From NCBI GenBank assembly GCA_038060635.1, contig JBBTGK010000308.1, positions 1 through 57,424 of the forward strand: a DNA stretch of 57,424 nt, written 5' to 3'. The stretch comes from Cyanobacteriota bacterium. GTDB taxonomy: Bacteria > Cyanobacteriota > Sericytochromatia > UBA7694 > JACMQJ01. The notes below the pieces were generated by a model, which was not told where the DNA came from, ran no database searches, and saw only the letters and a program-made list of their open reading frames with translations. The position numbers and the translations under genes are program-made. Below are positions 1-55,344 of the stretch, piece by piece (positions within the stretch are counted from its first letter, which is position 1; each line of letters starts with the position of its first letter).

Positions 1-54
1 CTCTTCATTTTCAGAAAGATTAGGTCTTTTAAAAGGTTGGTTGCTTTGTGCCAT
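1..54 (-). CDS. 5' end of an unidentified gene leaving the left edge (partial)
   Basis: The reverse complement of 1-54 reads ATG GCA CAA AGC ... = MAQSNQPFKRPNLSENEE with no stop before the edge. It is too short to assign a family. Confidence 0.3.
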   Translation of the reverse strand, partial: MAQSNQPFKRPNLSENEE

Positions 55-261
55 TTTTACAAAAAAATAAAATAAACATTACAATTCTAGCACATCAGCA
101 ATTAAAATTTTAAATTTAAATATAAAAAATAGAAAAAATCTATCTTGACTTATTTTTTTTTAGATATATTATTACAATGTATAACTATAAATTAATTTAA
201 TAATCTTTTTATTACTTTATAATTTTTACTGTTTGATAATATTTTTTGATTAAAGGAAATA

Positions 262-1404
262 TTGATTATTATGTTTTATCTGGAATATGATTCTATCGAA
301 AAAAATGAAAATTTAAACAATTCTAATTGGGTATTAGTTTACTCAACAGTTGATAGTATAAATAAAAATGTTTTAGATAATATAAAGAAAAAAGTCCCAA
401 AGGCAGATGTATTTGGAACAACATCTTTTAATGGAGTTTTTACACCTAATGGATTTAAAACAGGATGTTTTTTATTAGCAGGAGAAAAAAATGATAATAT
501 TGAAACAACCTCTATTATAAAAGAATGTACTAAAGAAAACTCTTTTAAAGTTGCACAAGAAGCCGCATTAGAATTAAAAAACTCTGCAAATAGACTACCT
601 GATGTTATTTTATTTCATCCTACTCCAGGTTTTGAAGAATCAATTTTAAACGGATTAGAAAGCATTTTTGATGCAAAAACACCTATTTATGGTGGTAGTG
701 CAGCCGATAATGATTTATCTGGAAATTGGTTAATTTTTAAAAATCAACAAATAGTAAAAGAAGGATTTTTAATAGTCGGTTATTATGCACCTAAATTTTA
801 TTCCTCTTTTATAAGTGGTTATTTACCAACCAAAAATACAGGAATAGTAACTAAAGCAGAAGGAAGAACTATATATGAAGTTGATAATAAACCTTTTACA
901 GATGTTTATCAAGAATGGACTAATGGTTTACTAAAAGATGAACTGAAAGAAAATGAAAATTCTGTTGTACTAGGAAAAACAAGTTTAAAGCCTCTTGGTA
1001 AAATGATTTCATCTTCTGGTAATTTACAGCAATATATTATTTCTCATCCTCATATAGTTTCACCAAAAGAAAAGTCTATTTCACTTTTTACAGATTTCAA
1101 TGTAGGTGATGAAATAACACTTATGTTTGGTTCTGAAGGTGCATTATTAAAAAGAGTAGAACAAACCGTTTCAAGAGCAACTCATAAAAAAGATTTAGAA
1201 CTAAAAGGCGGTATTCTTATTTATTGTGCAGGATGTGTTGGTGTTTTAGGTGATAAAGTTGATGAAGTAGTTGAATCTTTTAATATTAGTACAAAAAATA
1301 TTCCTTTTCTTGGTGCTGCCACTTTTGGAGAGCAGGGATGTATTAAAACATCAAAAAATTTAAATCTACATGGAAACCTGATGTGTAATACAATTTTATT
1401 TTGA
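262..1404 (+). CDS. FIST-domain-like sensory protein
   Basis: 380-aa ORF. The mid-protein 'YGGSAADNDL' and C-terminal 'YCAGCVGVLG...FGEQG' resemble the FIST_N/FIST_C consensus as I recall it. The start is either TTG 262 or ATG 271. The gene ends in TGA. Confidence 0.55.
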   Translation: MIIMFYLEYDSIEKNENLNNSNWVLVYSTVDSINKNVLDNIKKKVPKADVFGTTSFNGVFTPNGFKTGCFLLAGEKNDNIETTSIIKECTKENSFKVAQEAALELKNSANRLPDVILFHPTPGFEESILNGLESIFDAKTPIYGGSAADNDLSGNWLIFKNQQIVKEGFLIVGYYAPKFYSSFISGYLPTKNTGIVTKAEGRTIYEVDNKPFTDVYQEWTNGLLKDELKENENSVVLGKTSLKPLGKMISSSGNLQQYIISHPHIVSPKEKSISLFTDFNVGDEITLMFGSEGALLKRVEQTVSRATHKKDLELKGGILIYCAGCVGVLGDKVDEVVESFNISTKNIPFLGAATFGEQGCIKTSKNLNLHGNLMCNTILF

Positions 1405-1570
1405 TATATATGTTTTTTTTAACCTTTATTACCAATTGTTAATATTAGATTAAGTTGTATTTTTATATGTGATAGAATTAACTTTGTTTTATAAAATGTG
1501 GGTATTTTACTTATTCTCGTTTTATAAAATAAAGTTTATTTCTTTTGTTTTTTAAGGTTTTTTTAATTGT

Positions 1571-3484
1571 ATGTGTGGTATAGGTGGAGTTCTTGATCTT
1601 GCCTTTCAGATGATTCCTAATTTAGGAATAAGTTTAGAAGCGATAAATAAGATACAAAAACATAGAGGTCCTGATGGTGAGGGCATTTGGAAACATAATA
1701 AAGATTTTTTAGGTTTTGCTCATCAAAGATTAACAATAATAGATCTTAGTACTGGACATCAACCTATGTTAGATACAAAAACATCTAATTGCATAACATA
1801 CAATGGTGAAGTTTATAACTACATAGAATTAAGAAATGAATTAAAGTCAGATTTTGATTTTAGAACAACATCAGATACAGAAGTTGTACTTAATTCTTAT
1901 ACAAAATATGGATCTGAATGTGTAAAAAAGCTTAGAGGAATGTTCTCTTTTTCTATATGGGATGATAAGAATGATACCCTATTTTGTGCAAGAGATAGAT
2001 TTGGAATAAAACCATTCTACTATACAATTTCAAATGGCAAATTCTATTTTTCGTCAGAAGCTAAATCTTTATTGCCTTTTATGGATAAAGTAGAAATAAA
2101 TTTAGATGGATTTAAAGATTATCTTACTTTTCAATTTTATTTAGAAGGTAAAACTTTATTCAAAGATATACACGAATTACCGCCAGGACATACTTTAACA
2201 ATAAAAAATGGAAATATAAAAATAGAAAGATATTGGCAAGTTTACTATGATCTAGATTTTGATCATACAGAAAAATATTTTCTCGAAAAAGTAAACGAAT
2301 TATTAAGAGAATCTGTAGATTTACATCTTAGAAGCGATGTTCCTGTTGGAGCTTATTTAAGCGGAGGATTAGATTCTAGCATAATTGCGTCTGTTGCCTC
2401 TCAAAATAACTCTGAAAATTTCTTGGGTTTTACAGGTAAATTTTCATTAGGAGATGAATTTGATGAAAGTCATTATGCAAGAGAACTTGCAAAATTTAAA
2501 AACTTTGAATTACTTGAAGTTGACATAAAATCTCAAGATTTTGTTGATTCTATAAGAAAAGTTATTTATCATCTTGATAGCCCGGTTGCAGGACCAGGTT
2601 CCTTTCCACAATATATGGTTTCCAAACTTGTAAAAAACCATAGAAAAGTTGTTTTGGGTGGACAAGGCGGAGATGAAATTTTTGGTGGATATACAAGATA
2701 TCTAGTTGCATATTTTGAGCAATGTATAAAATCAGCAATTGATGGTACAGCAAACTCAGGAAATTTTATAGTTACCTATGAATCTATTATTCCTAACCTT
2801 ACTGCATTAAAAGGCTATAAGCCTATGTTAAAGCAATTTTGGAAAAATGGGCTTTTTGATGATATAGATAAAAGATATTTTAGTTTAGTTAATAGAGCAC
2901 CAGAACTTGGAAATGAAATAAATTGGTCTGCATTAACAGATTATGAGCCTTATGAAAGCTTTAGAAAGATATTTAAGGCAAAAAACGTTCAAAAAGAATC
3001 TTATTTTGATAGCATGACTCATTTTGATTTTAAAACCCTTCTGCCAGCACTTTTACAAGTAGAAGATAGAGTTAGTATGGCTCATGGAGTTGAATCTCGT
3101 GTTCCATTTTTAGATCATCCCCTTATAGAACTTGCTGCTACAATTCCATCAAATATAAAATTTAAAGATGGGACAATGAAAAATGTGTTAAAAAATTCTA
3201 TGAAAGAATTTTTACCAGATGTAATATTAAATCGTAAAAATAAAATGGGATTCCCTGTTCCTCTTAATGATTGGATTTCAGGGGAATTAAATGAATTTAC
3301 TAGAGAAATTTTTTCAAGCCAAAAATCACTTGGAAGAGATCTTATAAATAATAAAATTATCTTAGAAAACCTTGAAAAAGAACCTAAATTTGGCAGAAAA
3401 ATTTGGGGATTGTTATGTATAGAGCTTTGGCATCAAGAGTTTATTGATAAAGCTCATGAATTTAAAAAATTAGTTAGTTATTAA
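1571..3484 (+). CDS. Asparagine synthase (glutamine-hydrolysing)-like amidotransferase, copy 1
   Basis: N-terminal 'MCGIGG' supplies the Cys2 Ntn-glutaminase nucleophile. 'SGGLDSS' is a PP-loop ATP-pyrophosphatase motif. 637 aa, placed at the head of a polysaccharide gene set. Confidence 0.9.
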   Translation: MCGIGGVLDLAFQMIPNLGISLEAINKIQKHRGPDGEGIWKHNKDFLGFAHQRLTIIDLSTGHQPMLDTKTSNCITYNGEVYNYIELRNELKSDFDFRTTSDTEVVLNSYTKYGSECVKKLRGMFSFSIWDDKNDTLFCARDRFGIKPFYYTISNGKFYFSSEAKSLLPFMDKVEINLDGFKDYLTFQFYLEGKTLFKDIHELPPGHTLTIKNGNIKIERYWQVYYDLDFDHTEKYFLEKVNELLRESVDLHLRSDVPVGAYLSGGLDSSIIASVASQNNSENFLGFTGKFSLGDEFDESHYARELAKFKNFELLEVDIKSQDFVDSIRKVIYHLDSPVAGPGSFPQYMVSKLVKNHRKVVLGGQGGDEIFGGYTRYLVAYFEQCIKSAIDGTANSGNFIVTYESIIPNLTALKGYKPMLKQFWKNGLFDDIDKRYFSLVNRAPELGNEINWSALTDYEPYESFRKIFKAKNVQKESYFDSMTHFDFKTLLPALLQVEDRVSMAHGVESRVPFLDHPLIELAATIPSNIKFKDGTMKNVLKNSMKEFLPDVILNRKNKMGFPVPLNDWISGELNEFTREIFSSQKSLGRDLINNKIILENLEKEPKFGRKIWGLLCIELWHQEFIDKAHEFKKLVSY

Positions 3485-3502
3485 TTAGAACTAAAAGGAG
3501 TT

Positions 3503-4453
3503 ATGAACATGAAAGTTTTAATCACAGGAGGATCAGGTTTTATTGGTTCTCACTTAGCAGAAAAATTACTTGAAAGAGGCGATCAAGTATTAGTAATAGA
3601 TAATTATCAAACAGGTAGAAAAGATAATTTAGTGCCACATGATAATTTAAAAATTGTAGAAGGAACAATTGCTGATACAAATTTAGTAAATTCTCTTTTT
3701 GCAGATTTTAAACCAGAGATTGTTGTTCATGCAGCAGCATCTTACAAAGATCCAGATAATTGGATTGAAGATGTTATGACAAATGAACTTGGTACAGTTA
3801 ATATTGTTAGAGCAAGTAAAAATGTTGGTGTAAAAAGAGTAATCTATTTCCAAACATCTCTTTGTTATGGTTTAAAACCAATGGAACAACCAATAACATT
3901 GAATCATATAGTTAAACCAGAAGGAAGTAGTTATGCTATCAGTAAAACAGCTGGTGAATCGTATGTTCAACTTAGTGGTTTAGATTTTATATCTTTCAGA
4001 TTAGCAAATGCTTATGGGCCAAGAAACTTAAGCGGACCATTACCTACTTTTTATCATAGATTATCAGAAGGAAAAGCTTGTTTTGCAATGAATACAAGAA
4101 GAGATTTCATCTATGTATCAGATTTAGTTGAAGTTGTTGTAAAAGCAGTTGATGGAAAAGGAACAAAAGGAGCATATCATATATCTACAGGTAGTGATTA
4201 TTCTATAAAAGAGCTTTTTGATGCAACTACAAAAGCAATGGACATAAAAATGGAAAAAGAAGTAGAAGTAAGAGAAAGAGGAGAAGATGATGTTTTTACA
4301 ATATTAATAGATCCATCTAAAACAAATCAAGATTTTGATTGGAAAGCTTCTACACCACTTGAAACAGGCGTTAAAAATGCAATTGAGTGGTATAAATCAC
4401 ATGGAATTACACAAACATTTACACATTTAAAAAATGTAGATGGAAAACACTAA
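3503..4453 (+). CDS. NAD-dependent sugar-nucleotide epimerase/dehydratase (extended SDR)
   Basis: 'ITGGSGFIGSHL' Rossmann GxxGxxG motif and 'YAISK' catalytic YxxxK. The AGGAG at 3496-3500 fits the second ATG at 3509 (MKVLITGG) better than ATG 3503. Confidence 0.9.
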   Translation: MNMKVLITGGSGFIGSHLAEKLLERGDQVLVIDNYQTGRKDNLVPHDNLKIVEGTIADTNLVNSLFADFKPEIVVHAAASYKDPDNWIEDVMTNELGTVNIVRASKNVGVKRVIYFQTSLCYGLKPMEQPITLNHIVKPEGSSYAISKTAGESYVQLSGLDFISFRLANAYGPRNLSGPLPTFYHRLSEGKACFAMNTRRDFIYVSDLVEVVVKAVDGKGTKGAYHISTGSDYSIKELFDATTKAMDIKMEKEVEVRERGEDDVFTILIDPSKTNQDFDWKASTPLETGVKNAIEWYKSHGITQTFTHLKNVDGKH

Positions 4454-4467
4454 AGAGGTAAAATAAT

Positions 4468-5511
4468 ATGGATGAATTTAAAAATCAACATATCCTTGTT
4501 GTTGGTGGAGCAGGTTTTGTAGGTTCTAATTTAGTAAAAACAATACTAAAAAGTGATCCATCTAAAGTTACAGTAGTTGATAATCTTTTATCTGCCGAAA
4601 AAACTAATTTACCAGATGATTCAAGAGTTAATTTTATTCATGGTTCTATTACTAATGATGAAGTTTTATCTCAATTATCTAGTGATTTAGATTATGTTTT
4701 TCATCTTTCTACTTATCATGGAAATCAAAGCTCTATACACGATCCAATTGCAGATCATGAAAACAACACTTATACAACTTTGAAACTTTATGAAAAAATA
4801 AAAGATTTCAAAAATATTAAGAAAGTTGTTTATTCTTCTGCTGGTTGTGTTGTTGCAGAAAAAACATTTGAAAAAGCTCATGCTACAACTGAAGAAACAC
4901 CTGTTTCTTTATATTTAGATAGTCCATACCAAATATCAAAAATAATAGGTGAGTTTTATTCTAACTATTATATGAAGATGTATGGCTTACCTGTAGTAAA
5001 AGCAAGATTCCAAAATGTTTATGGACCTGGTGAAGTTCTTGGAGCTGGTGATTGGAGAGGAACTCCTGCTACCGTTTGGAGAAATGTAACCCCTACATTT
5101 GTTTATAAAGCGTTAAAACATCAACCTCTTACTGTTGAAAATGCAGGAATTGCTACTCGTGATTTTATTTATGTTGATGATATTGTTAGAGGTCTTATGC
5201 TTTGTGCTACAAAGGGTGAAAAAGGCAGTGTTTATAATCTTGCAAGTGGCGTTGAAACAAGTATTGCTGATTTAGCAACAAATATAAATGAAATTTCTGA
5301 GAACCCTACTCCAGTGAACTTTTTACCAAAAAGACATTGGGATAACTCAGGAAAAAGATTCGGAAGCACTGATAAAGCTAAAGAAGATTTAGATTTTATT
5401 ACAAGAGTAGATATCAAAGAAGGTTTAACTAAAACAATTGAATGGACTAAAGCTAATTTAGAACATATTGATAAATGTATTAGTAAACATGATAAATATA
5501 TGAATAAGTAA
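4468..5511 (+). CDS. NAD-dependent sugar-nucleotide epimerase/dehydratase (extended SDR)
   Basis: 'VVGGAGFVGSNL' GxxGxxG motif and 'YQISK' YxxxK. An AGAGG Shine-Dalgarno lies upstream. The gene sits 14 bp after the previous SDR gene. Confidence 0.9.
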   Translation: MDEFKNQHILVVGGAGFVGSNLVKTILKSDPSKVTVVDNLLSAEKTNLPDDSRVNFIHGSITNDEVLSQLSSDLDYVFHLSTYHGNQSSIHDPIADHENNTYTTLKLYEKIKDFKNIKKVVYSSAGCVVAEKTFEKAHATTEETPVSLYLDSPYQISKIIGEFYSNYYMKMYGLPVVKARFQNVYGPGEVLGAGDWRGTPATVWRNVTPTFVYKALKHQPLTVENAGIATRDFIYVDDIVRGLMLCATKGEKGSVYNLASGVETSIADLATNINEISENPTPVNFLPKRHWDNSGKRFGSTDKAKEDLDFITRVDIKEGLTKTIEWTKANLEHIDKCISKHDKYMNK

Positions 5512-5539
5512 TTATTATAAATATATTAATTATATCTTC

Positions 5540-5575
5540 GTCAGTCTGATTAAACCTAGACTGACATTTTTTTTG
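5540..5575 (+). terminator. Rho-independent terminator after the SDR gene
   Basis: An 8-bp perfect stem (GTCAGTCT 5540-5547 / AGACTGAC 5558-5565) with a 10-nt loop, followed by an 8-nt T run (5567-5574). Confidence 0.75.
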
Positions 5576-5590
5576 AATTAAAGAGAACAA

Positions 5591-7066
5591 ATGACAGAAG
5601 AAAAGAAACCTAGTTTTTTAAAATCTACCTTAATATATGGAATAGGCGGAATGTTAAATAAATTTTTATCATTTTTTCTTTTACCATTATTTACAGCTTA
5701 TCTAACACCTAAAGATTATGGAGTAACTGCAATTTTAGGAACAATGACATTTGTTCTTACCTCTATATTTACACTTGGTTTTGGAACATCAATTGGTTTA
5801 TCTTTTTTTGATACAAAAAATGAATTTAGAAAAGAAGAATCTATACATACAGCATTGATAATTCTACTTTTAAGTGCTGGTCTTATGTTTTTATTTGGAA
5901 GTATATTTTCTATAAAATTTGCGGAACATTTTTTAAATGACAAAGAACATTATAATTTTGTTATTTTATCATTAATATCTAATTTTTTTAATATAATAAT
6001 GACACCGTTAATTGTTTATTATCAATTTGAAAATAAAGCAAAAAAATATATTATCTTAACTAACTTAACATCTGTTTTAGCAATATTAACAAATGTTCTA
6101 TTTGTTGTTTATTTTAAAAGAGGAGTTCAAGGTCTTTTAGAAGCGGGTGTTATTTCTAGTTTATTAACATTTCTAATTTTTTGTATTGATGTATTTAATA
6201 ACTTAAAATTTAAGTTTAGTAAAAATGTTTCAAAAGTTTTGTTAAAGCAAGGCTTGCCAATGGTTCCATCTTTTGCAAGTTTATTTGTTATTCAACAGAG
6301 TAATAGAGTTTTTTTAGAACATTTTAATGGTTTAGAATCTTTAGGTATCTATTCTATAGGATATAATTTAGGAATGGTTATGAGTATTTTTGTAAACGCT
6401 TTTCAAAATACATGGCTTGCATTTTTTTTGTCATATATGGATAAAAAAAAGGAAGCCGAAGAAGTTTTTGGAAAAATTACAACTTATTATATTTTATCTT
6501 TGGGCTTTATAAATACAATGTTTTTTATATTCGCAGGGTCTATAGTTGCATTTATGACTAAAGATGCTTTTCATTCTTCTTATAAAATAGTTGGATTAGC
6601 AGCTACATCTCATTTTTTAAATGGTCTTTTTGCATTATTACTTCCAGCATTATATTTTGAAAAAGAAGTTAAATATGTTACTTTAATACAAATATTCGCG
6701 GCTGTATTTTCAACAATAACAAATATTTTTTTAATAATTTATTTTTCAGAATTTGGTGCAGCATTAGGTTTAGTAATAGGAACTTTTTATATTGTTTTAT
6801 TTCAATATATTTGGAATTTAATAGGAAATCCTAATTATATAAAAATAAAATATGAGTGGGGTAAAATAGCTTTATTTTCTATGTTATATTGTATTTTTTC
6901 TTCTGTAATGCTTATAAATAGAAATTTAGATAAAACAACAGAAATTATATACTCTTTTTCTTTATCAACTATTTTATTACTATTAACATTAATTCTTTTA
7001 AATAATGAAGATAAAAATAAATTAAAAGCTTTTGTTTTACAAAAGCTTAATAGATTAAAAAAATAA
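5591..7066 (+). CDS. Polysaccharide/oligosaccharide flippase (MOP superfamily, Wzx-like)
   Basis: 491-aa polytopic membrane protein with at least 12 hydrophobic segments. N-terminal 'LIYGIGGMLNKFLSFFLLPLFT' is typical of Wzx/RfbX-type flippases. It sits within sugar-nucleotide genes. Confidence 0.8.
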   Translation: MTEEKKPSFLKSTLIYGIGGMLNKFLSFFLLPLFTAYLTPKDYGVTAILGTMTFVLTSIFTLGFGTSIGLSFFDTKNEFRKEESIHTALIILLLSAGLMFLFGSIFSIKFAEHFLNDKEHYNFVILSLISNFFNIIMTPLIVYYQFENKAKKYIILTNLTSVLAILTNVLFVVYFKRGVQGLLEAGVISSLLTFLIFCIDVFNNLKFKFSKNVSKVLLKQGLPMVPSFASLFVIQQSNRVFLEHFNGLESLGIYSIGYNLGMVMSIFVNAFQNTWLAFFLSYMDKKKEAEEVFGKITTYYILSLGFINTMFFIFAGSIVAFMTKDAFHSSYKIVGLAATSHFLNGLFALLLPALYFEKEVKYVTLIQIFAAVFSTITNIFLIIYFSEFGAALGLVIGTFYIVLFQYIWNLIGNPNYIKIKYEWGKIALFSMLYCIFSSVMLINRNLDKTTEIIYSFSLSTILLLLTLILLNNEDKNKLKAFVLQKLNRLKK

Positions 7067-7071
7067 TTCTT

Positions 7072-10000
7072 TTATTTTTTTTCAAAAGTTACAGTAACAT
7101 ATAATTGTCCTAATGAAGAGTTTATAGTTAATGTAGCATTATGTAATCCTTTTTCTAATAATGTAGGATCAGCTATTATGTTTATTATAGATGAATCATT
7201 ACCACTTAATTTATCTACTGTAAGCCAAGGTTGTTCGGATATTATATTCCAAGAAACAGGAATAGAACCTTTTTTTATAATATTAAAATTACTATTGCTA
7301 ATTTGATTTATTTTACCTAAATCTATTAATGTTTTACTTACATCAATATCATTTTTTATTTCTTCTTTAGTAAAAGAAACTAATAAATCTCTTGTTTCAT
7401 TTCCTAAAGATATTTTTACAGAAGCGTTATAAGTTCCAAAAGATAATAAAGTCGGATTAACGGTTATATTTATAGACCCATCACCGATACCACTTTTAGG
7501 CGTAATATCCATCCATTCTTTTTCTGATACAGCAGTCCAGTTTAATATTCCACCACCAGAATTTGTTATTGTTATATTTTTAGAACTAGATGTAGTAATA
7601 TTTCCAAAATCTATTGAATCATCGCTTAATTGAATTATTGGATCAAGTTCTGGGTTTATATTTGAAATTGAAGATGGATTACTGATTATTTTATCAATAC
7701 CAAAAGTTATATTGTTGTTTCGTGAAAAATTAGCATATATTCCATCTGTTTTGTTATTAGAGCCTCTAACATTCCAAACTTCTATAAATTGGCTATAGTT
7801 AAAGTCAAAAGAATCTAAATTTTCATCATTTATAGTTGTCGCATTATTTGAAAAAACAGGAGTACTATGAATACCTTCAGAATTAAAGTTAGCTCTATAC
7901 ATAGGGTTTAAAAAACTTTGAGTTTTTATACTACCTCTTCTTTGTAAAATAGCGGTTTCATCACCTGAGCTTACACCTTGCCATGCAACATAAAATTCTC
8001 CATTATGTTTTCCATCACTTTGGTTTATAGAAACTCTTGGAAATGAATAATCATTATTGGTATCACTTAAAAGAATATCTCCAATTCCTGCTATACTATT
8101 TTCATTTGTATATTTTATAAAAACACCATTATTACTAACACTTCCATTAGTTTGCCATGTAAAAACTGATTTTCCATCACTTGCCATTGCTACATCTATA
8201 TTTGATTGTATTCCTTCTGTATTAGAATTTAATCTATATTCTGGTTTTGATTCATTTGGGTTTATTAAACTAAATTCTCTTTCAAAAATACCTTCTGTAT
8301 CTCCAGAACCTTCTCCTTGCCAAACAATAAAAAGTTTACCGTAGTTTGTACTTCCTTGATTAAGAGCTATTTTAGGATTTATTCTATAACCACCTGTTGA
8401 AGTATTTACTTGTTTTTCTTCTCCTGTTCCAAAATTACCTAATCTAAAAAGCCAAATTCCATCATTATTAACACTTCCAAGAGTTTGCCATGTAATTGCA
8501 CAAGAATTATCTGTTCCAACAACTATAGCTGGCTTGGATTGAAATCCATCTGTTTTATAATTTACTCTATATTCATTAGGATAAGAGTCATAAGCTGTTG
8601 TATCTGCATTGAATCTTTTTATAAAAATACCTGAATTATCTCCTGAACCTACTCCTTCCCAAGTAACAATAAAAAAACCAGTATCTTTGTTTATTGCAAC
8701 AGATGGATGTTTTTGATCTCCTTCAGTAGTGTTATTTATTTTAAATACATCACCTACATTATTTCCTGATTTATCAATTTTTCTTCCATAAATTCCCCAA
8801 CCAGAACCATCTGTTCCATATTCTTGCCAAACAACTATTGTATTTCCATTTTTATCCATAGCTGATGAGGGGTGCGATTTTCCAAAATAATCATTAATTC
8901 CTAGTTCAAATGCTCCAACAGGTGCAGTTCCATTTGTTACTTCTTCATGTGTTGAAACTATTATTTTATGATATCCTGATTCGGTTGCCTTAAAAAGTAT
9001 TTTACTATCTGTTGTTGTTCCAAAATCATCATTCTCAATATCTGATGTAGAAGTTGTATTACTTGGTTTAAATAATCTTAAATGTGCATTTTTTCCATCT
9101 AATTGAGATAGACTTATTTTATAATATTGTCCAACATTTGCATAAAATTTGTATAGTTTTGATGTCCCACTAAGTGTAACCGTTATTGGATCTCCTTCTG
9201 GTGCTATTCCTGAAAAAACTGAATCAGAGATTGGGTCTTTAATTCCTGGATTCATATTTGAAATTAAAGATGGATTACTAATTATTTTATCAAGACCAAA
9301 AGGTATATTACTATTTCTTGAAAAATTAGCATAGATTCCATCTGTTTTGTTATTAGAACCTCTAACATTCCAAATTTCTATAAATTGGCTATAGTTAAGG
9401 GAGAGAGAATCTAAATTTTCATCATTTGTAGTTGTAGCATTATTTGAAAAAATAGGAGTGCTATGAATACCTTCAGAATTAAAGTTAGCTCTATACATAG
9501 GGTTTAAAAAACTTTGAGTTTTTATACTACCTCTTCTTTGTAAAATAGCGGTTTCATCACCTGAGCTTACACCTTGCCATGCAACATAAAATTCTCCATT
9601 ATGTTTTCCATCACTTTGGTTTATAGAAACTCTTGGAAATGAATAATCATTATTGGTATCACTTAAAAGAATATCTCCAATTCCTGCTATACTATTTTCA
9701 TTTGTATATTTTATAAAAACACCATTATTACTAACACTTCCATTAGTTTGCCATGTAAAAACTGATTTTCCATCACTTGCCATTGCTACATCTATATTTG
9801 ATTGTATTCCTTCTGTATTAGAATTTAATCTATATTCTGGTTTTGATTCATTTGGGTTTATTAAACTAAATTCTCTTTCAAAAATACCTTCTGTATCTCC
9901 AGAACCTTCTCCTTGCCAAACAATAAAAAGTTTACCGTAGTTTGTACTTCCTTGATTAAGAGCTATTTTAGGATTTATTCTATAACCACCTGTTGAAGTA

Positions 10001-10956
10001 TTTACTTGTTTTTCTTCTCCTGTTCCAAAATTACCTAATCTAAAAAGCCAAATTCCATCATTATTAACACTTCCAAGAGTTTGCCATGTAATTGCACAAG
10101 AATTATCTGTTCCAACAACTATAGCTGGCTTGGATTGAAATCCATCTGTTTTATAATTTACTCTATATTCATTAGGATAAGAGTCATAAGCTGTTGTATC
10201 TGCATTGAATCTTTTTATAAAAATACCTGAATTATCTCCTGAACCTACTCCTTCCCAAGTAACAATAAAAAAACCAGTATCTTTGTTTATTGCAACAGAT
10301 GGATGTTTTTGATCTCCTTCAGTAGTGTTATTTATTTTAAATACATCACCTACATTATTTCCTGATTTATCAATTTTTCTTCCATAAATTCCCCAACCAG
10401 AACCATCTGTTCCATATTCTTGCCAAACAACTATTGTATTTCCATTTTTATCCATAGCTGATGAGGGGTGCGATTTTCCAAAATAATCATTAATTCCTAG
10501 TTCAAATGCTCCAACAGGTGCAGTTCCATTTGTTACTTCTTCATGTGTTGAAACTATTATTTTATGATATCCTGATTCGGTTGCCTTAAAAAGTATTTTA
10601 CTATCTGTTGTTGTTCCAAAATCATCATTCTCAATATCTGATGTAGAAGTTGTATTACTTGGTTTAAATAATCTTAAATGTGCATTTTTTCCATCTAATT
10701 GAGATAGACTTATTTTATAATATTGCCCAGCATTTGCATAAAATTTGTATATTTTTGATGTCCCACTAAGTGTTACGGTTATTGAATCGCCTTCTGGTGC
10801 TAAACCAGAAAAAATAGCAGTATTTACAGATTTTGTTTTGAAAGATAAAATATCTTTTTTTAGTTTTTCTGTAGGCGTGTTGGTAAGAGGAATACTGCAA
10901 GAAAGAAGTATTAGAGAAAGAAATGTAAGGTATTTTTTATTTTTCATTTTTACCAT
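7072..10956 (-). CDS. Large surface lipoprotein: 2 x (PPC-like domain + ~7 propeller-type repeats) followed by 2 BACON/Ig-like domains
   Basis: Signal peptide plus lipobox 'LSLILLSC'. The PPC-like module is 'YKFYANAGQYYKISLSQLDGKNAHLRLF...GYHKIIVS'. Units of about 55 aa recur, such as 'GDQKHPSVAINKDTGFFIVTWEGVGSGDNSGIFIKRF'. The C-terminal modules read 'NWTAVSEKEWMDITPKSG...GTYNASVKI' and 'SWNIISEQPWLTVDKLSG...GLHNATLTI'. Its start overlaps the upstream gene's stop (ATGGTAA). Confidence 0.85.
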   Translation of the reverse strand: MVKMKNKKYLTFLSLILLSCSIPLTNTPTEKLKKDILSFKTKSVNTAIFSGLAPEGDSITVTLSGTSKIYKFYANAGQYYKISLSQLDGKNAHLRLFKPSNTTSTSDIENDDFGTTTDSKILFKATESGYHKIIVSTHEEVTNGTAPVGAFELGINDYFGKSHPSSAMDKNGNTIVVWQEYGTDGSGWGIYGRKIDKSGNNVGDVFKINNTTEGDQKHPSVAINKDTGFFIVTWEGVGSGDNSGIFIKRFNADTTAYDSYPNEYRVNYKTDGFQSKPAIVVGTDNSCAITWQTLGSVNNDGIWLFRLGNFGTGEEKQVNTSTGGYRINPKIALNQGSTNYGKLFIVWQGEGSGDTEGIFEREFSLINPNESKPEYRLNSNTEGIQSNIDVAMASDGKSVFTWQTNGSVSNNGVFIKYTNENSIAGIGDILLSDTNNDYSFPRVSINQSDGKHNGEFYVAWQGVSSGDETAILQRRGSIKTQSFLNPMYRANFNSEGIHSTPIFSNNATTTNDENLDSLSLNYSQFIEIWNVRGSNNKTDGIYANFSRNSNIPFGLDKIISNPSLISNMNPGIKDPISDSVFSGIAPEGDPITVTLSGTSKLYKFYANVGQYYKISLSQLDGKNAHLRLFKPSNTTSTSDIENDDFGTTTDSKILFKATESGYHKIIVSTHEEVTNGTAPVGAFELGINDYFGKSHPSSAMDKNGNTIVVWQEYGTDGSGWGIYGRKIDKSGNNVGDVFKINNTTEGDQKHPSVAINKDTGFFIVTWEGVGSGDNSGIFIKRFNADTTAYDSYPNEYRVNYKTDGFQSKPAIVVGTDNSCAITWQTLGSVNNDGIWLFRLGNFGTGEEKQVNTSTGGYRINPKIALNQGSTNYGKLFIVWQGEGSGDTEGIFEREFSLINPNESKPEYRLNSNTEGIQSNIDVAMASDGKSVFTWQTNGSVSNNGVFIKYTNENSIAGIGDILLSDTNNDYSFPRVSINQSDGKHNGEFYVAWQGVSSGDETAILQRRGSIKTQSFLNPMYRANFNSEGIHSTPVFSNNATTINDENLDSFDFNYSQFIEVWNVRGSNNKTDGIYANFSRNNNITFGIDKIISNPSSISNINPELDPIIQLSDDSIDFGNITTSSSKNITITNSGGGILNWTAVSEKEWMDITPKSGIGDGSINITVNPTLLSFGTYNASVKISLGNETRDLLVSFTKEEIKNDIDVSKTLIDLGKINQISNSNFNIIKKGSIPVSWNIISEQPWLTVDKLSGNDSSIINIIADPTLLEKGLHNATLTINSSLGQLYVTVTFEKK
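7650..10815 (-). repeat. In-frame tandem duplication, period 1596 bp (532 aa), inside the 1294-aa lipoprotein gene
   Basis: Copy 2 is about 7650-9219 and copy 1 about 9246-10815. 7865-9129 matches 9461-10725 in every line I compared (about 1265 bp), and 425 aa are identical in the ORF track. The edges (7650-7864; 9130-9219) are diverged. The identical 95-aa antisense ORFs at 8057 and 9653 are 1596 bp apart. Confidence 0.95.
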
Positions 10957-12920
10957 GAACCTGAAGCACCACCTGAAGATAAAGTTCTTTCTATAATTAC
11001 TGGACCGACAAAAGTATAATAATTATTACCATTATTTAATTTACCTGTTACAAGCATATAGTATTCTCTAGACCAATCTCTATCATCTTTTATTTTATCA
11101 TCTAATTTTAGTGTTAGATCTTTATAGTAATAGTTTTGCTCTTTTTTTATTGAACCTTGTTCCAAAATTCCTGATGTAACAAATTCTCCATCTCCATTAA
11201 CAAAACCATTCTTACTTTTAGATAAATATAAATTTACATCATTGAAGTTATTATTATCACTACCTTTTGTTTTTTTTATTCTAAATGTAGCAATATTATT
11301 TTCTATTGATTTTACAGATAGTGTTAATTTTATATCATTAGGTAATGATAAAGTTCCTGTTAAAATTGAACTACTACTTCTAGAAGCACTATATTTAGGG
11401 TTAACTGTAGTTATATTTAATATAGATAAAGCTGTATTTGAATCACTTGAAGGGTTTGAGGCTAAAAAAGTTATTTTTTTATTTAAAACTTCATTTAGTT
11501 TTAAAGGAAAACTAAATAATCCATTTTCATTTGCTAAAATATCAATAAAAGAGCCATTTTCATTTGTGAACAAATAATTTGTAGGTGAAATTCTACTATT
11601 TTTAATAGTTGCTCCTGCACAATCAGTTACTTTACCCGTAAAATAGGCTGTTTCTCCTATTGGTATATTAAAATTAAATGACTTAAACATTTTAGAAACA
11701 CCAATACTTTCTTCTGTGACTCCTTTAAAATATGTATTTATATTTCCTTCAAACTTAATTGATCCATCATAGCCACTTATTGCACAAATAATATTTGTAG
11801 GATTTTTTATTTCTAGTATTTTTATAGATATATCACCTAATTTAAATCCTAATGAAAAATCATTATCATTATTAGCTGTATTTTTACAAAAACCTGCGTT
11901 AATAAATACTGATATATCTAAATCTACACAGATTTTAGATTCAATAGCTCCTGTTTCTTTATCAAACCCTATTTCTAAAGTAAAATTTGCAAAACCAGTA
12001 TCAAGACTAGATTGAGATACAACTTCTCTTGTACTTAAATCTATAATAAAGCTTTGCTTGAAATTAGCTAAATTATTTGATATACCTATCTTATTTGATG
12101 TTATTTTATTGGTTAATGGATCTATTGTAATATCAACTAAAATTCCTTTTGTAGTTGGTAAGGATAATGATCCCAAAGAAGCTGCTATAAAAATAACTTC
12201 GTTGTTTGATTTTATTTTAATATCTTTATTAGTTTTAATAGGAAAAAACCATCCTCTTTTAGTTCCATCTACTTCTATAACTTTCCCATTAAATTTTGTA
12301 GGAGCAGGTGGACCATAATAAGTATCAGCTTTTGTTGTATAAACTTTTGAATCATTTATAGTGCTTTCAATTATAACAAGTGAATCATTGGAAGATAGTG
12401 AATTTTGTATTGTTTTTTTATAGTTAAATTTAATTTTTGATGCATCTTGTATACTATTTTTAAGGTGTGTAGATACTAATTTCCAGTTACTTTTACCTGT
12501 TTTTGTATAAATAGAATAAAAAAATGATTTATCTGAGGTTAAATCTATTTCATAACTTGAATTATTTTTAAGATTAGAAATATAAAAAGCTCTTCTGCCT
12601 TCTATTTCTATCATAGAACTTTGTAAATCTTTTCCATTTGCCTTAGTATTAAATGAATTTAGATTTATTTTATTGAAAGTATTTTCTATTTTTTCATTTA
12701 TCTTATCTATTTTATCGGTTTTATCATCATAAACTTGTATATATTGAAAGTTTGTTTTAAAGTTATTATTTTTATTTTCTTTTGATTCTAAAATATCTTT
12801 ATTATTAGTTTTTATTGTGTTTAATTTATCTATTGGGGTACAAGAAAAAAGAAAAAAAAGTATTCCAGTAAAAATAACTAATATTTTAGTATATATATTT
12901 ATATTCTTAAGATATAACAT
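10950..12920 (-). CDS. Lipoprotein of unknown function with a CarboxypepD_reg-like module and a shared C-terminal domain
   Basis: Lipobox 'FFLFSC'. 'GKVTDCAGATIKNSRISPTNYLFTNENGSFIDI' resembles a carboxypeptidase-regulatory-like beta-sandwich. The C-terminal 'EYYMLVTGKLNNGNNYYTFVGPVII' parallels the C-terminus of the 14705-16468 product. Confidence 0.75.
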   Translation of the reverse strand: MLYLKNINIYTKILVIFTGILFFLFSCTPIDKLNTIKTNNKDILESKENKNNNFKTNFQYIQVYDDKTDKIDKINEKIENTFNKINLNSFNTKANGKDLQSSMIEIEGRRAFYISNLKNNSSYEIDLTSDKSFFYSIYTKTGKSNWKLVSTHLKNSIQDASKIKFNYKKTIQNSLSSNDSLVIIESTINDSKVYTTKADTYYGPPAPTKFNGKVIEVDGTKRGWFFPIKTNKDIKIKSNNEVIFIAASLGSLSLPTTKGILVDITIDPLTNKITSNKIGISNNLANFKQSFIIDLSTREVVSQSSLDTGFANFTLEIGFDKETGAIESKICVDLDISVFINAGFCKNTANNDNDFSLGFKLGDISIKILEIKNPTNIICAISGYDGSIKFEGNINTYFKGVTEESIGVSKMFKSFNFNIPIGETAYFTGKVTDCAGATIKNSRISPTNYLFTNENGSFIDILANENGLFSFPLKLNEVLNKKITFLASNPSSDSNTALSILNITTVNPKYSASRSSSSILTGTLSLPNDIKLTLSVKSIENNIATFRIKKTKGSDNNNFNDVNLYLSKSKNGFVNGDGEFVTSGILEQGSIKKEQNYYYKDLTLKLDDKIKDDRDWSREYYMLVTGKLNNGNNYYTFVGPVIIERTLSSGGASGSW

Positions 12921-12934
12921 TAAAATTACCTTTT

Positions 12935-14683
12935 TTATTGAATATCAAATATTTTAAAAGCTGATGTATATGTTTCATATCCATTTTGAGCACTATTACT
13001 TTTTTTCCAAACTACCATAATACTATTATCATCACCTGTTATAATAGGTGATGATATATTATAGTCTTGTGGTTTATCTATTTCTATTGCGTTTCCAACG
13101 GCTTGACCAAGTCTATTATATGCTTTTACATATATACCACGCTCAATTTTTTTGTATATATTACTAGCTCCATAAAAATAAGTATTTTTATCTGGATAAT
13201 AATTTGTTTTCATATATACAAGTATAAAAGAACCATCTCCTCTAACATGTATTTGTGGTTCTGATTCAAAAGATTCAAAACCTGTATTTAAAGAATTATC
13301 ATTTACAGATTCAAGGTCTCTTGGATTACCATTAGAATCATACATTCTAAATCTTATTTCTGAGTAATTATTCCATGCTAAAATAAAATTATTACTTGAA
13401 TCTAAACCAATAGATGGTCTATCTCCAGAACTTCCCATTGTATATTTTCCTACATTTTCACCATTTGGATTAAATTTTTCAACTACTAAAGAACTACTTG
13501 CATTTCTACTACATGTAAAAAAACTACTATCAGAACCCATTGCTATATTTTGGTTACTTGGTGGACTATATAATGATGTTCCTATATATGAACCTTTAGG
13601 CTTTTCTTCTATATACATTTGTACTCCAAGTGTTGCAATAATAAAATCTCCATCACTATTTTTATTAGAAACAATTCTAAAGGAATTATTATCAATAAAC
13701 ATACTACTTTCTGTAATACGTAATTTTGATATTTCATTTAGATTATTATCAAATATTTTTGCTATTGCTTTTAAGGTATAACTTCCATCATTTATATTTC
13801 CTTCCCCTTCGTTATATCCTAGTATGAATCTATTTTTGTACACAGCTAATTTTGGATTAAAGCTATTATATGAGGTTGATAATGTTATTTTTTGAGATAT
13901 TGCAACTCCATTTTTATCTATAATCATTGCATATAATTTATGTTGAATATATTGATTTGTATTTGGATCACGTCCTGAATTATCCTGATCATCTGCCCAA
14001 ATCATAATATAATTACCATTACTAAGCTTGGCTCCTACAGAAGGAGCCTTTCCAGTTCCATAATTACCATATACTTCGGTTTGCCCAAAAGCTTTTAAAT
14101 TAAGAGCATAAGTACTAGGATATTGGGTAATATCCACAGGTACTATTTTTCTAGGCTTAAAAATAGGTTCTATCGGTATAGTTCCAATATTAGCAATATC
14201 TTGTAAAAACATATCTATTTTTACCGAAGAAATATCAGGTGAAACTGCAAACTCTTCAGAACTACCTCTTGATAAAACCTTACCATTTGCATCTTCTAAA
14301 AACAATAAAACCTTAATTAAATCACCCATATTTGAATCAATTTTAAAAGATATCGGCTGTGATGTATTAACTGATAATTTTCTCTCAAAACTTTTACCAA
14401 GTCTCATAACCCTAATTCTTAAAAAAGCATTAGTCGGAAGCCCTATATCTGGTACGGCTTTAGTATTAAAATCGTTGATATTAATAGAATCATTTTTTTT
14501 ACCCAAATCAGACGGTTTTAAAGAAATAACAACAGAACCTTTATTTTTTATATCTGGAAGACTTATAGTAGTATTACCATCAATATTAGCAACTTCTTGA
14601 AAAGTAAAATTATTAGATGAACATGAAACTATAAAACTTACTACTAAAATTGCAGATATTCTCTTAATTAAAACGTTTAGCAT
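12935..14683 (-). CDS. Lipoprotein with propeller-type repeats (paralogous to the repeats in 7072-10956)
   Basis: Lipobox 'FIVSCSSNNF'. Repeat units include 'KAPSVGAKLSNGNYIMIWADDQDNSG', 'DRPSIGLDSSNNFILAWNNYSEIRFRMYDSNGN', 'SEPQIHVRGDGSFILVY' and 'SSPIITGDDNSIMVVWKK'. Confidence 0.75.
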   Translation of the reverse strand: MLNVLIKRISAILVVSFIVSCSSNNFTFQEVANIDGNTTISLPDIKNKGSVVISLKPSDLGKKNDSININDFNTKAVPDIGLPTNAFLRIRVMRLGKSFERKLSVNTSQPISFKIDSNMGDLIKVLLFLEDANGKVLSRGSSEEFAVSPDISSVKIDMFLQDIANIGTIPIEPIFKPRKIVPVDITQYPSTYALNLKAFGQTEVYGNYGTGKAPSVGAKLSNGNYIMIWADDQDNSGRDPNTNQYIQHKLYAMIIDKNGVAISQKITLSTSYNSFNPKLAVYKNRFILGYNEGEGNINDGSYTLKAIAKIFDNNLNEISKLRITESSMFIDNNSFRIVSNKNSDGDFIIATLGVQMYIEEKPKGSYIGTSLYSPPSNQNIAMGSDSSFFTCSRNASSSLVVEKFNPNGENVGKYTMGSSGDRPSIGLDSSNNFILAWNNYSEIRFRMYDSNGNPRDLESVNDNSLNTGFESFESEPQIHVRGDGSFILVYMKTNYYPDKNTYFYGASNIYKKIERGIYVKAYNRLGQAVGNAIEIDKPQDYNISSPIITGDDNSIMVVWKKSNSAQNGYETYTSAFKIFDIQ

Positions 14684-53736: not shown

Positions 53737-55344
53737 TTAATTAACTTTATTTTTTTCCAAAAAAGTATCATAACTACCTTCATAAATAGTTATTTTATTA
53801 TTTTTTATTTCAAAAATTCTATTACAAGTTCTGGCAATAAAGTCTCTATCATGCGAAATAACAATAAATGTTTCAGGAAATTCTTGCAATGCTTTTATTA
53901 GAACTTCTTTTGATGGTAAATCTAAATGATTTGTTGGTTCATCCATTAATAAAAGATTTGTTGGTGTTAATAACATTTTTGCCATTGCCAAACGACTTCT
54001 TTCACCACCACTAAGTAATCTTACATCTTGAAAAACTATTTCATTTCTGAATAAAAATCGTGATAATAAAAATCTTACTTGTGTTAAAGTCCATTCTGGA
54101 ACCATATCATGAATTTCGTTTAATACAGAGTTTTCCATATTTAGCTTATCTGATTGATTTTGAGCAAAATAACCTTGATTTACATTATGACCAAATTCTA
54201 CTTTTCCAGAAGTTGCTTCTTGTTCTCCAATTAAAATTTTCATTAAAGTTGTTTTACCAACTCCATTACCACCTAAAATAGCAATTTTTTGACCTCTTTC
54301 TATTACTATCTCTTCTTTTATAGAAAAAATATGTTTATCATCATAATCCTTAGAAAGATCTTTTAATGTCATTACAGTTCTTCCTGATGGTGGAGGTGCT
54401 GGAAATTTAAAATCAATACTTTGCTCAGTTTTAGGAACTTCAATTCTTTCGATTTTATCAATCATTTTTTCTCTACTTTTAGCTTGTGTAGATCTGTGGG
54501 CACTTGCTCTAAATCTATCAACAAAAACCTGCATTTTTTTTATTTCTTTTTCTTGTCTTTCATGTGCAGATATAATTGTTTCTAAGTTTCTTTCTTTTAT
54601 TATTTCAAAATCTGAATAATTACCAGGATAATCATATAAAACATGATGTTCTATTTCGGTTATTCTTGTAACTATATTATCTAAAAATCTTCTATCATGA
54701 GAGATTAAAACTACTGCGTTTTCATATTCTTGTAAATGTTTCTCTAACCATTCAACAGCTTCTAAATCTAAATGATTTGTTGGTTCATCTAATAATAATA
54801 AATTTGGTTTTTGAAGTAACAATTTTGCTAAGGCAATTCTCATTTGCCATCCTCCACTGAAACTACCTACAGGAGAATCAAAATCTAACTCTTTAAAACC
54901 TAATCCTTTTAAAACTCTAAAAATTTCTCTTTCTAAACCGTCAGAGTTTGTTCTTCCAACTTCTTCTAATAAAACAGAATATTTTTCAATTAAACCATTT
55001 AATTTTTTTTCATCGGTTTCGGTTTGCATTTTATCTAAAACTTCATTTAGTTGGAATTCTAATCCAAAAACTTCAGGGAAAGCACTTTTAACTTCTTCTA
55101 TCAAAGTTAAATCTTTTAGTGCAGGTAATTCTTGACTTAGGTATGTGATGGTTGTTTTTGGTGCTATATAGATACTTCCACTATCAAATTTTTCTTCTTT
55201 TACAAGAATTTTCATTAAAACGGATTTACCGCAACCATTTACGCCAATAAGACCAACTTTATCTGTTGGGCTTATAAACCAATTTACGCCATCTAATATT
55301 TTTTTCTGTGAAAACTCTACAGAAAGATCTGTTAATTTAATCAT
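53737..55344 (-). CDS. ABC-F family ATPase (two ABC cassettes, no TMD)
   Basis: Walker A 'GVNGCGKS' and 'GGNGVGKT'. Signatures 'SGGWQMR' and 'LSGGERSR'. Walker B 'LLLLDEPTNHLD' and 'LLLMDEPTNHLD'. The inter-domain linker is charged. Confidence 0.9.
   Translation of the reverse strand: MIKLTDLSVEFSQKKILDGVNWFISPTDKVGLIGVNGCGKSVLMKILVKEEKFDSGSIYIAPKTTITYLSQELPALKDLTLIEEVKSAFPEVFGLEFQLNEVLDKMQTETDEKKLNGLIEKYSVLLEEVGRTNSDGLEREIFRVLKGLGFKELDFDSPVGSFSGGWQMRIALAKLLLQKPNLLLLDEPTNHLDLEAVEWLEKHLQEYENAVVLISHDRRFLDNIVTRITEIEHHVLYDYPGNYSDFEIIKERNLETIISAHERQEKEIKKMQVFVDRFRASAHRSTQAKSREKMIDKIERIEVPKTEQSIDFKFPAPPPSGRTVMTLKDLSKDYDDKHIFSIKEEIVIERGQKIAILGGNGVGKTTLMKILIGEQEATSGKVEFGHNVNQGYFAQNQSDKLNMENSVLNEIHDMVPEWTLTQVRFLLSRFLFRNEIVFQDVRLLSGGERSRLAMAKMLLTPTNLLLMDEPTNHLDLPSKEVLIKALQEFPETFIVISHDRDFIARTCNRIFEIKNNKITIYEGSYDTFLEKNKVN

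Follow-up and report, generated by a model that had tools for sequence, protein, structure and literature searches.

The Lipoprotein Gene and Its Two Units

The window analyzed here comprises 57,424 nucleotides (nt) of a contig (JBBTGK010000308.1, positions 1–57,424; assembly GCA_038060635.1) from a Cyanobacteriota bacterium, and the subject of this study is a predicted lipoprotein gene on its reverse strand (7072–10956) in which one large module occurs twice in tandem. As read from the list of open reading frames (ORFs) and its translation, the gene encodes 1294 amino acids (aa) with Pfam matches to PPC, BACON_2, and BACON. The translation and these matches place a leader first, followed by two copies of a PPC domain joined to a seven-bladed propeller, and then by two BACON domains. 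All features of the gene given below lie, like the gene itself, on the reverse strand.

The leader, as read from the translation, is a putative signal peptide with a lipobox (residues 1–20, ending in LILLS-C20; 10897–10956); the S-C motif is kept at the equivalent position in paralogues. The two units were delimited by the identity profile at an offset of 1596 nt. Unit 1, the N-terminal copy, spans residues 48–579 (9220–10815), and unit 2, the C-terminal copy, spans residues 580–1111 (7624–9219). The PPC domain (PF04151) is matched in two stretches, at 36.5 bits against a gathering cut-off of 25.9, and in each unit it is followed by seven blades of ∼56 aa with a conserved Trp in each. The sequence-only reading of this DNA had described the unit as a PPC-like domain plus about seven repeats, and this description holds. 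Downstream of unit 2 lies a BACON_2 domain (residues 1109–1180; 7417–7632; PF19190, 60.6 bits, cut-off 25), the model of which matches two stretches of the protein, and a second BACON-like domain (residues 1235–1290; 7087–7254) that reaches 24.3 bits with PF13004, slightly below the cut-off of 25.

An AlphaFold2 model of a single unit is all-beta, with a small sandwich followed by seven blades (predicted local distance difference test score 70.6, predicted template modeling [TM] score 0.70). Searched with Foldseek, this model retrieved only generic propellers (sialidases, GH43/GH93 enzymes, and PL25 lyases) with TM scores of 0.4–0.58 and 8%–12% identity, and a profile search of PDB sequences gave no match.

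A Sharp Block of Identity within Diverged Copies

The tandem offset of 1596 nt equals 3 × 532 and keeps frame within the single ORF, as expected of the in-frame duplication that had been proposed from the sequence. Across 1575 nt the two units are 98% identical, and the differences are distributed very unevenly. A core of 1265 nt (7865–9129 in unit 2; 9461–10725 in unit 1) contains no mismatch, which at the protein level corresponds to an uninterrupted run of 425 identical residues (codons 77–501). On both sides of this core the copies differ. The C-terminal edge of unit 2 (7645–7864) departs from its counterpart in unit 1 (9241–9460) at 22 of 220 sites, and the N-terminal edge (9130–9219) from its counterpart (10726–10815) at 11 of 90. 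Past the limits of the repeat, identity falls to the random level of ∼10/30. The contrast between core and edges (0/1265 versus 33/310 mismatches) is highly significant (Fisher p = 1.2e-24), and the per-column profile thus bears out the earlier claim of a perfectly identical block of ∼1.26 kb with diverged flanks. The edge differences fall in 32 codons, 14 with synonymous and 18 with non-synonymous changes; the latter include the previously noted A76V (NAG/NVG) and L518F/S519D/L520F (SLSL/FDFN).

Such a pattern could in principle arise from a recent simple duplication, the edges of which then diverged rapidly under positive selection with no gene conversion, and the larger non-synonymous share in the edges (18 of 32 codons) would fit this. 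The synonymous differences point the other way: 14 are found in ∼103 edge codons, against none in 421 core codons. Moreover, the edge differences (∼10.6% between units) are unit-specific and fixed, being identical in every assembly that covers them, while polymorphism is confined to the core. A recent duplication, which had been considered unlikely from the outset, is therefore hardly credible as an explanation.

Two Core Haplotypes in Well H41

The source of the DNA is well H41 of the Hainich aquifer, from which filter replicates were sequenced as 2×150-nt reads and each assembled separately with metaSPAdes v3.13 (PMC8672522). The three 0.2-μm runs of this well are ERR3858136–ERR3858138 (project PRJEB36505). 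The core in the window was compared with five other contigs from this well, including L001 (metaSPAdes, replicate R3), L138 (metaSPAdes, replicate R2), L139 (Logan run ERR3858136), and L140 (Logan run ERR3858138). The last three were found by exact look-ups of the neighboring flippase and enter the gene from its C-terminal side. A table of sites from the window and these four contigs revealed 34 polymorphic positions, all within an inner tract of 861 nt (8098–8958) and all resolving into two haplotypes, A (that of the window) and B (that of replicate R2). The shoulders of the core on either side of this tract (7865–8097 and 8959–9129) are invariant in every assembly. Within the inner tract the units are identical to each other, and haplotypes A and B are 3.9% apart. 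The two differ by 23 synonymous and 9 conservative non-synonymous codons (proportions of synonymous and non-synonymous differences, pS 0.086 and pN 0.009), which argues for evolved variation and not sequencing error.

The window carries haplotype A at 34/34 sites in both units, and L139 carries A at all 8 sites that it covers. L138 is B at 34/34 sites. The other two contigs are mixed, L001 with B at 25 sites and A at 9, and L140 with B at 27 and A at 4. L001 reproduces positions 1–13432 of the window save for 50 mismatches, namely the 25 inner-tract sites and their mirror positions in unit 1 (9694–10522), so that both of its cores present one and the same A/B mosaic. Counted once per site, there are 25 differences inside the cores and none in the other 10.9 kb (Fisher p = 2e-25). 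Variable sites follow immediately after the ends of the Logan contigs (8410|8411 and 8946|8950), which indicates that both alleles occur within single runs.

Outside the cores, the R2 contigs and the window are separated by only 3 substitutions over ∼15.4 kb (5037 T>G, 5338 T>A, and 16950 T>G in window coordinates), the first two of them in an epimerase gene (4468–5511). Judged from these sequences, the three single-nucleotide polymorphisms (SNPs) would mark a second, almost clonal strain.

A database search with the full protein returned the window, its NCBI twin, and L001 only. With the 421-aa core as query there was no match above 59% identity, a 101-aa piece gave no match, and exact look-ups of three partial products gave no record. 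In Joint Genome Institute (JGI) metagenomes, an exact 40-mer had 0 matches and a profile scan found only relatives at ≤39% identity, neither yielding an orthologue in which the unit number could be compared.

Assembler Consensus or Gene Conversion

The 25 core differences of L001 at first suggest that the identity of the two cores is purely an artifact of collapse. This idea was downgraded because L138, L139, and L140 revealed all-A and all-B assemblies. In a more elaborate version, the two units of a single genome have different cores, one A and one B (∼2.7% apart), which the assembler collapses to a consensus that is then walked twice. The program lends itself to this, since metaSPAdes is designed to mask bulges, and its contigs are read off a consensus graph (PMC5411777), and the assemblies were made per sample from 2×150-nt reads. 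Masking of this kind accounts for the identical mosaic in both cores of L001, for the confinement of its differences to the cores, and for the exact point at which L138 stops (see below); the presence of both alleles within a single run also agrees with it. Alone, it fails to explain the uniform-A and uniform-B assemblies. A fixed 1:1 ratio of A to B predicts mosaics almost everywhere, whereas A alone is found in the window and B alone in L138. In addition, L138 and a further R2 scaffold, L142, carry the three SNPs beyond the cores, so that the sample with the all-B core also contains a second strain, and the invariant shoulders around a polymorphic tract are hard to derive from divergence between paralogues. 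Masking within one genome, the main rival, is thus an unlikely account of the identity, and even if it applied, the core would be ∼4 times less diverged than the edges and an older conversion would still be needed.

How rarely masking would give uniform assemblies was estimated by a simulation in which A and B were fixed at 1:1 in one genome, bulges were chosen by coverage, and the frequency of uniform assemblies was recorded for each k. With k = 33 or 55, ∼4% of trials gave an assembly of a single type; with k = 21 the figure was ∼1%. The metaSPAdes assemblies were uniform in two of three cases and of opposite types (window A, L138 B). The rarity of this outcome under a 1:1 ratio favors two strains whose ratio differs between samples. 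The preferred reading, to which a probability of about 0.62 is assigned, is therefore that two near-clonal strains live in H41 and that gene conversion has made the two cores of each the same (A,A in one, B,B in the other). If so, the mosaic of L001 would be a consensus over both strains present together, and the perfect identity of the cores in the window appears to be real for the strain represented. Gene conversion or concerted evolution, as proposed in the sequence-only reading, is accordingly supported by the existence of two core haplotypes differing at 34 sites, one assembly being all A and another all B.

Several points weigh against this interpretation. All of the assemblies are of short reads, with a k-mer coverage of ∼5, and were produced by the consensus-based procedure described above. 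In L001, where both cores share the A/B mosaic, identity is a consensus by construction. The comparison of likeness within a genome with likeness between strains has A,A in the window on one side and, on the other, R2, which is all B where it is covered; L138 does not pass through the core a second time, and the B strain's copy of unit 1 is therefore not seen separately. The simulated assembly process is a simplification of the real one, and its outcome would carry less weight if bulge choices were correlated. Only one well is represented, the assemblies being made from its replicates, and the reading assumes that the balance of the strains changed strongly from one replicate to the next. Finally, the unit number (two or more) comes from assembly-graph traversal alone.

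The Tandem Junction and the Number of Units

The path from one unit to the next (9130–9460) runs from the last part of unit 1 across a 21-nt linker into the first part of unit 2, and its 331 nt are unique sequence leading from the core back into the core. It is present in three independent metaSPAdes assemblies (the window, L001 from replicate R3, and L138 from replicate R2), which indicates that the duplication is real and that at least two units lie in tandem. A false tandem created by a chimera of single-unit strains was also considered and ruled out: the junction is unique, in frame, and found in all three assemblies.

Exactly two units are present in the window and in L001, and L138 is compatible with two. 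The number could nevertheless be wrong or variable, with three or more units or a population mix of one-, two-, and three-unit forms, given that assemblers report the minimal walk. The 1265-nt repeat is longer than any 2×150 insert, L138 breaks off after 55 nt of the second core, a length exactly equal to k, and another contig of the same metagenome-assembled genome (MAG), C145, ends where unit 1 of another family member ends. Against this, two assemblies independently yield exactly two units, and no contig directly links the leader-side edge to the BACON-side edge, as a one-unit form would. No one- or three-unit contig was found among the H41 assemblies compared, a very thin sampling. A different unit number is considered unlikely, two being the provisional count. 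The earlier warning that a perfect repeat of >1.2 kb can mislead assemblers was well founded, as both the mosaic cores of L001 and the abrupt end of L138 illustrate.

A Possible Course of Homogenization

The observations are best explained by the following sequence of events. An old in-frame tandem duplication of the 532-aa module would have been followed by divergence of the copies to ∼10%. Non-reciprocal homologous recombination between the units, presumably gene conversion of the RecA type, would then have replaced the central 1.27 kb of one copy by that of the other and spared the edges. Conversion, or import followed by conversion, may have taken place more than once. With its high identity the core would be prone to renewed exchange, and tract length would be limited by the edges, which are mismatched at 10%. 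The B allele may go back to an older paralogous state, or it may have come in from outside, with a later copying step that brought it to the other unit. A pair of direct repeats of this length should also permit in-frame loss or gain of a unit.

The Protein Family and a Two-Unit Paralogue in a Congener

Most members of the family are single-unit proteins of ∼630 aa. At 57% identity, P0020 is the nearest homologue, and it too is a complete gene with a single unit; no orthologue of the window gene was found in the 40 genomes searched. A congener, G001 (3 contigs, 5.1 Mb), carries a separate two-unit gene of 1107 aa (locus L012, 1501–4824; G001:C1:1169313–1172636). DNA identity between its units is 63% but rises to 95.8% in a block of 471 nt; the perfect run of 214 nt within this block was matched by 0 of 20,000 permutations. 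It resembles the window gene in family, in its lipoprotein leader, in having two PPC-plus-propeller units, and in its homogenized block. In contrast, it has no BACON domains, belongs to another clade, is not syntenic, and has a converted block that is shorter and older. In a tree, the two units of each gene group together, and the window gene and the G001 gene fall in different clades. Module duplication and patchy homogenization therefore appear, as judged from these sequences, in two clades of the family, and the block in G001 provides independent support from within the family for conversion.

The MAG from which the window comes (G000) contains a counterpart of the G001 gene (L021, G000:C145:4000–6302), and the contig stops precisely where unit 1 does. 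The repeat probably caused the assembly to break here, in which case a second gene with tandem units may be present in the MAG, only half assembled. Two other loci of the congener, L023 (G001:C1:312145–313758) and L024 (G001:C2:90830–92443), encode identical single-unit proteins of 632 aa on different contigs; at the protein level they would represent a dispersed exact duplicate.

The ∼56-aa propeller blade itself (W..S.G.DGSG.GI..RRF...G...G.EF.VN; window 7645–9240 and loci L056–L135) has no Pfam or NCBIfam model. Hundreds of metagenome proteins carry it, often together with cadherin, Calx-beta, FG-GAP, or PKD modules.

Genomic Setting

The lipoprotein gene adjoins genes for a Wzx-type flippase and sugar epimerases, and further lipoprotein genes lie nearby. 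A surface location is predicted for the product, a putative lipoprotein with twin, identical propellers that is encoded in a polysaccharide locus and may bind glycans bivalently. One of the neighbors, a 656-aa lipoprotein gene, holds a weak tandem pair of 33 nt (11502–11567, 73% identity). In R2 scaffold L142 this gene is interrupted by a gap of 10 Ns after ∼65 nt of unrelated sequence (L142 6905–6981, corresponding to window ∼12355–12366). The gap is a scaffolding artifact of low-coverage assembly and splits the gene into two called products.

The host MAG is 4.27 Mb in 369 contigs, is 75% complete, and has a G+C content of ∼25%. An ABC-F protein encoded in the window (53737–55344) is 78% identical to one in the Candidatus Sericytochromatia MAG STL-CYA1, which indicates that the window derives from a low-G+C groundwater member of that class.

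Discussion

Bacterial paralogues and tandem repeats are known to undergo concerted evolution by gene conversion, the tufA/tufB pair of Salmonella being an example. The tandem units described here appear to be a further example of this familiar process. As in systems of the tufA/tufB type, a sharp block of identity lies inside older, diverged copies, and on the preferred reading the copies within a genome would be closer to each other than the same copy is between strains. Unlike in those systems, exchange in the lipoprotein gene would take place within a single ORF, between two multi-domain modules of 1.6 kb each, and the case is known from short-read metagenome assemblies of an uncultured member of the Sericytochromatia only.

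A second parallel is offered by the Periscope Proteins, surface proteins of variable length with highly identical tandem DNA repeats (PMC8201768). The lipoprotein shares with them a predicted surface location, here indicated by the lipobox leader, and tandem repeats that are 100% identical over 1265 nt; as in the Periscope Proteins, such high identity at the DNA level should favor intragenic recombination. It differs in having only two repeats, each a globular PPC-plus-propeller module of 532 aa and not a small rod-like stalk domain, and in showing no variation in repeat number among the thinly sampled H41 assemblies.

The more useful outcome may be one of method. When a metaSPAdes MAG shows a perfect repeat that exceeds the insert size, the repeat should not be taken at face value. 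Replicate assemblies of one site can separate a consensus artifact from a property of the strain, and in the present case their comparison revealed a 34-site polymorphism that is invisible in the window alone.

For the lineage, the groundwater Sericytochromatia, which has barely been studied, the gene provides a fairly clean further case of repeat homogenization in a surface protein, in a family of propeller repeats so far without a Pfam model. A bolder proposal, for now doubtful, is that each of the two co-occurring strains is fixed for a core allele of its own, present in both propellers; the alleles are 3.9% apart over 861 nt, against ∼99.98% identity of the strains elsewhere. If this is true, the twin propellers would be kept identical by selection, as in a bivalent binder, and the alleles would turn over by import and intragenic conversion. 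Such turnover would provide a mechanism of fast variation for a surface lipoprotein in these non-photosynthetic relatives of the cyanobacteria.

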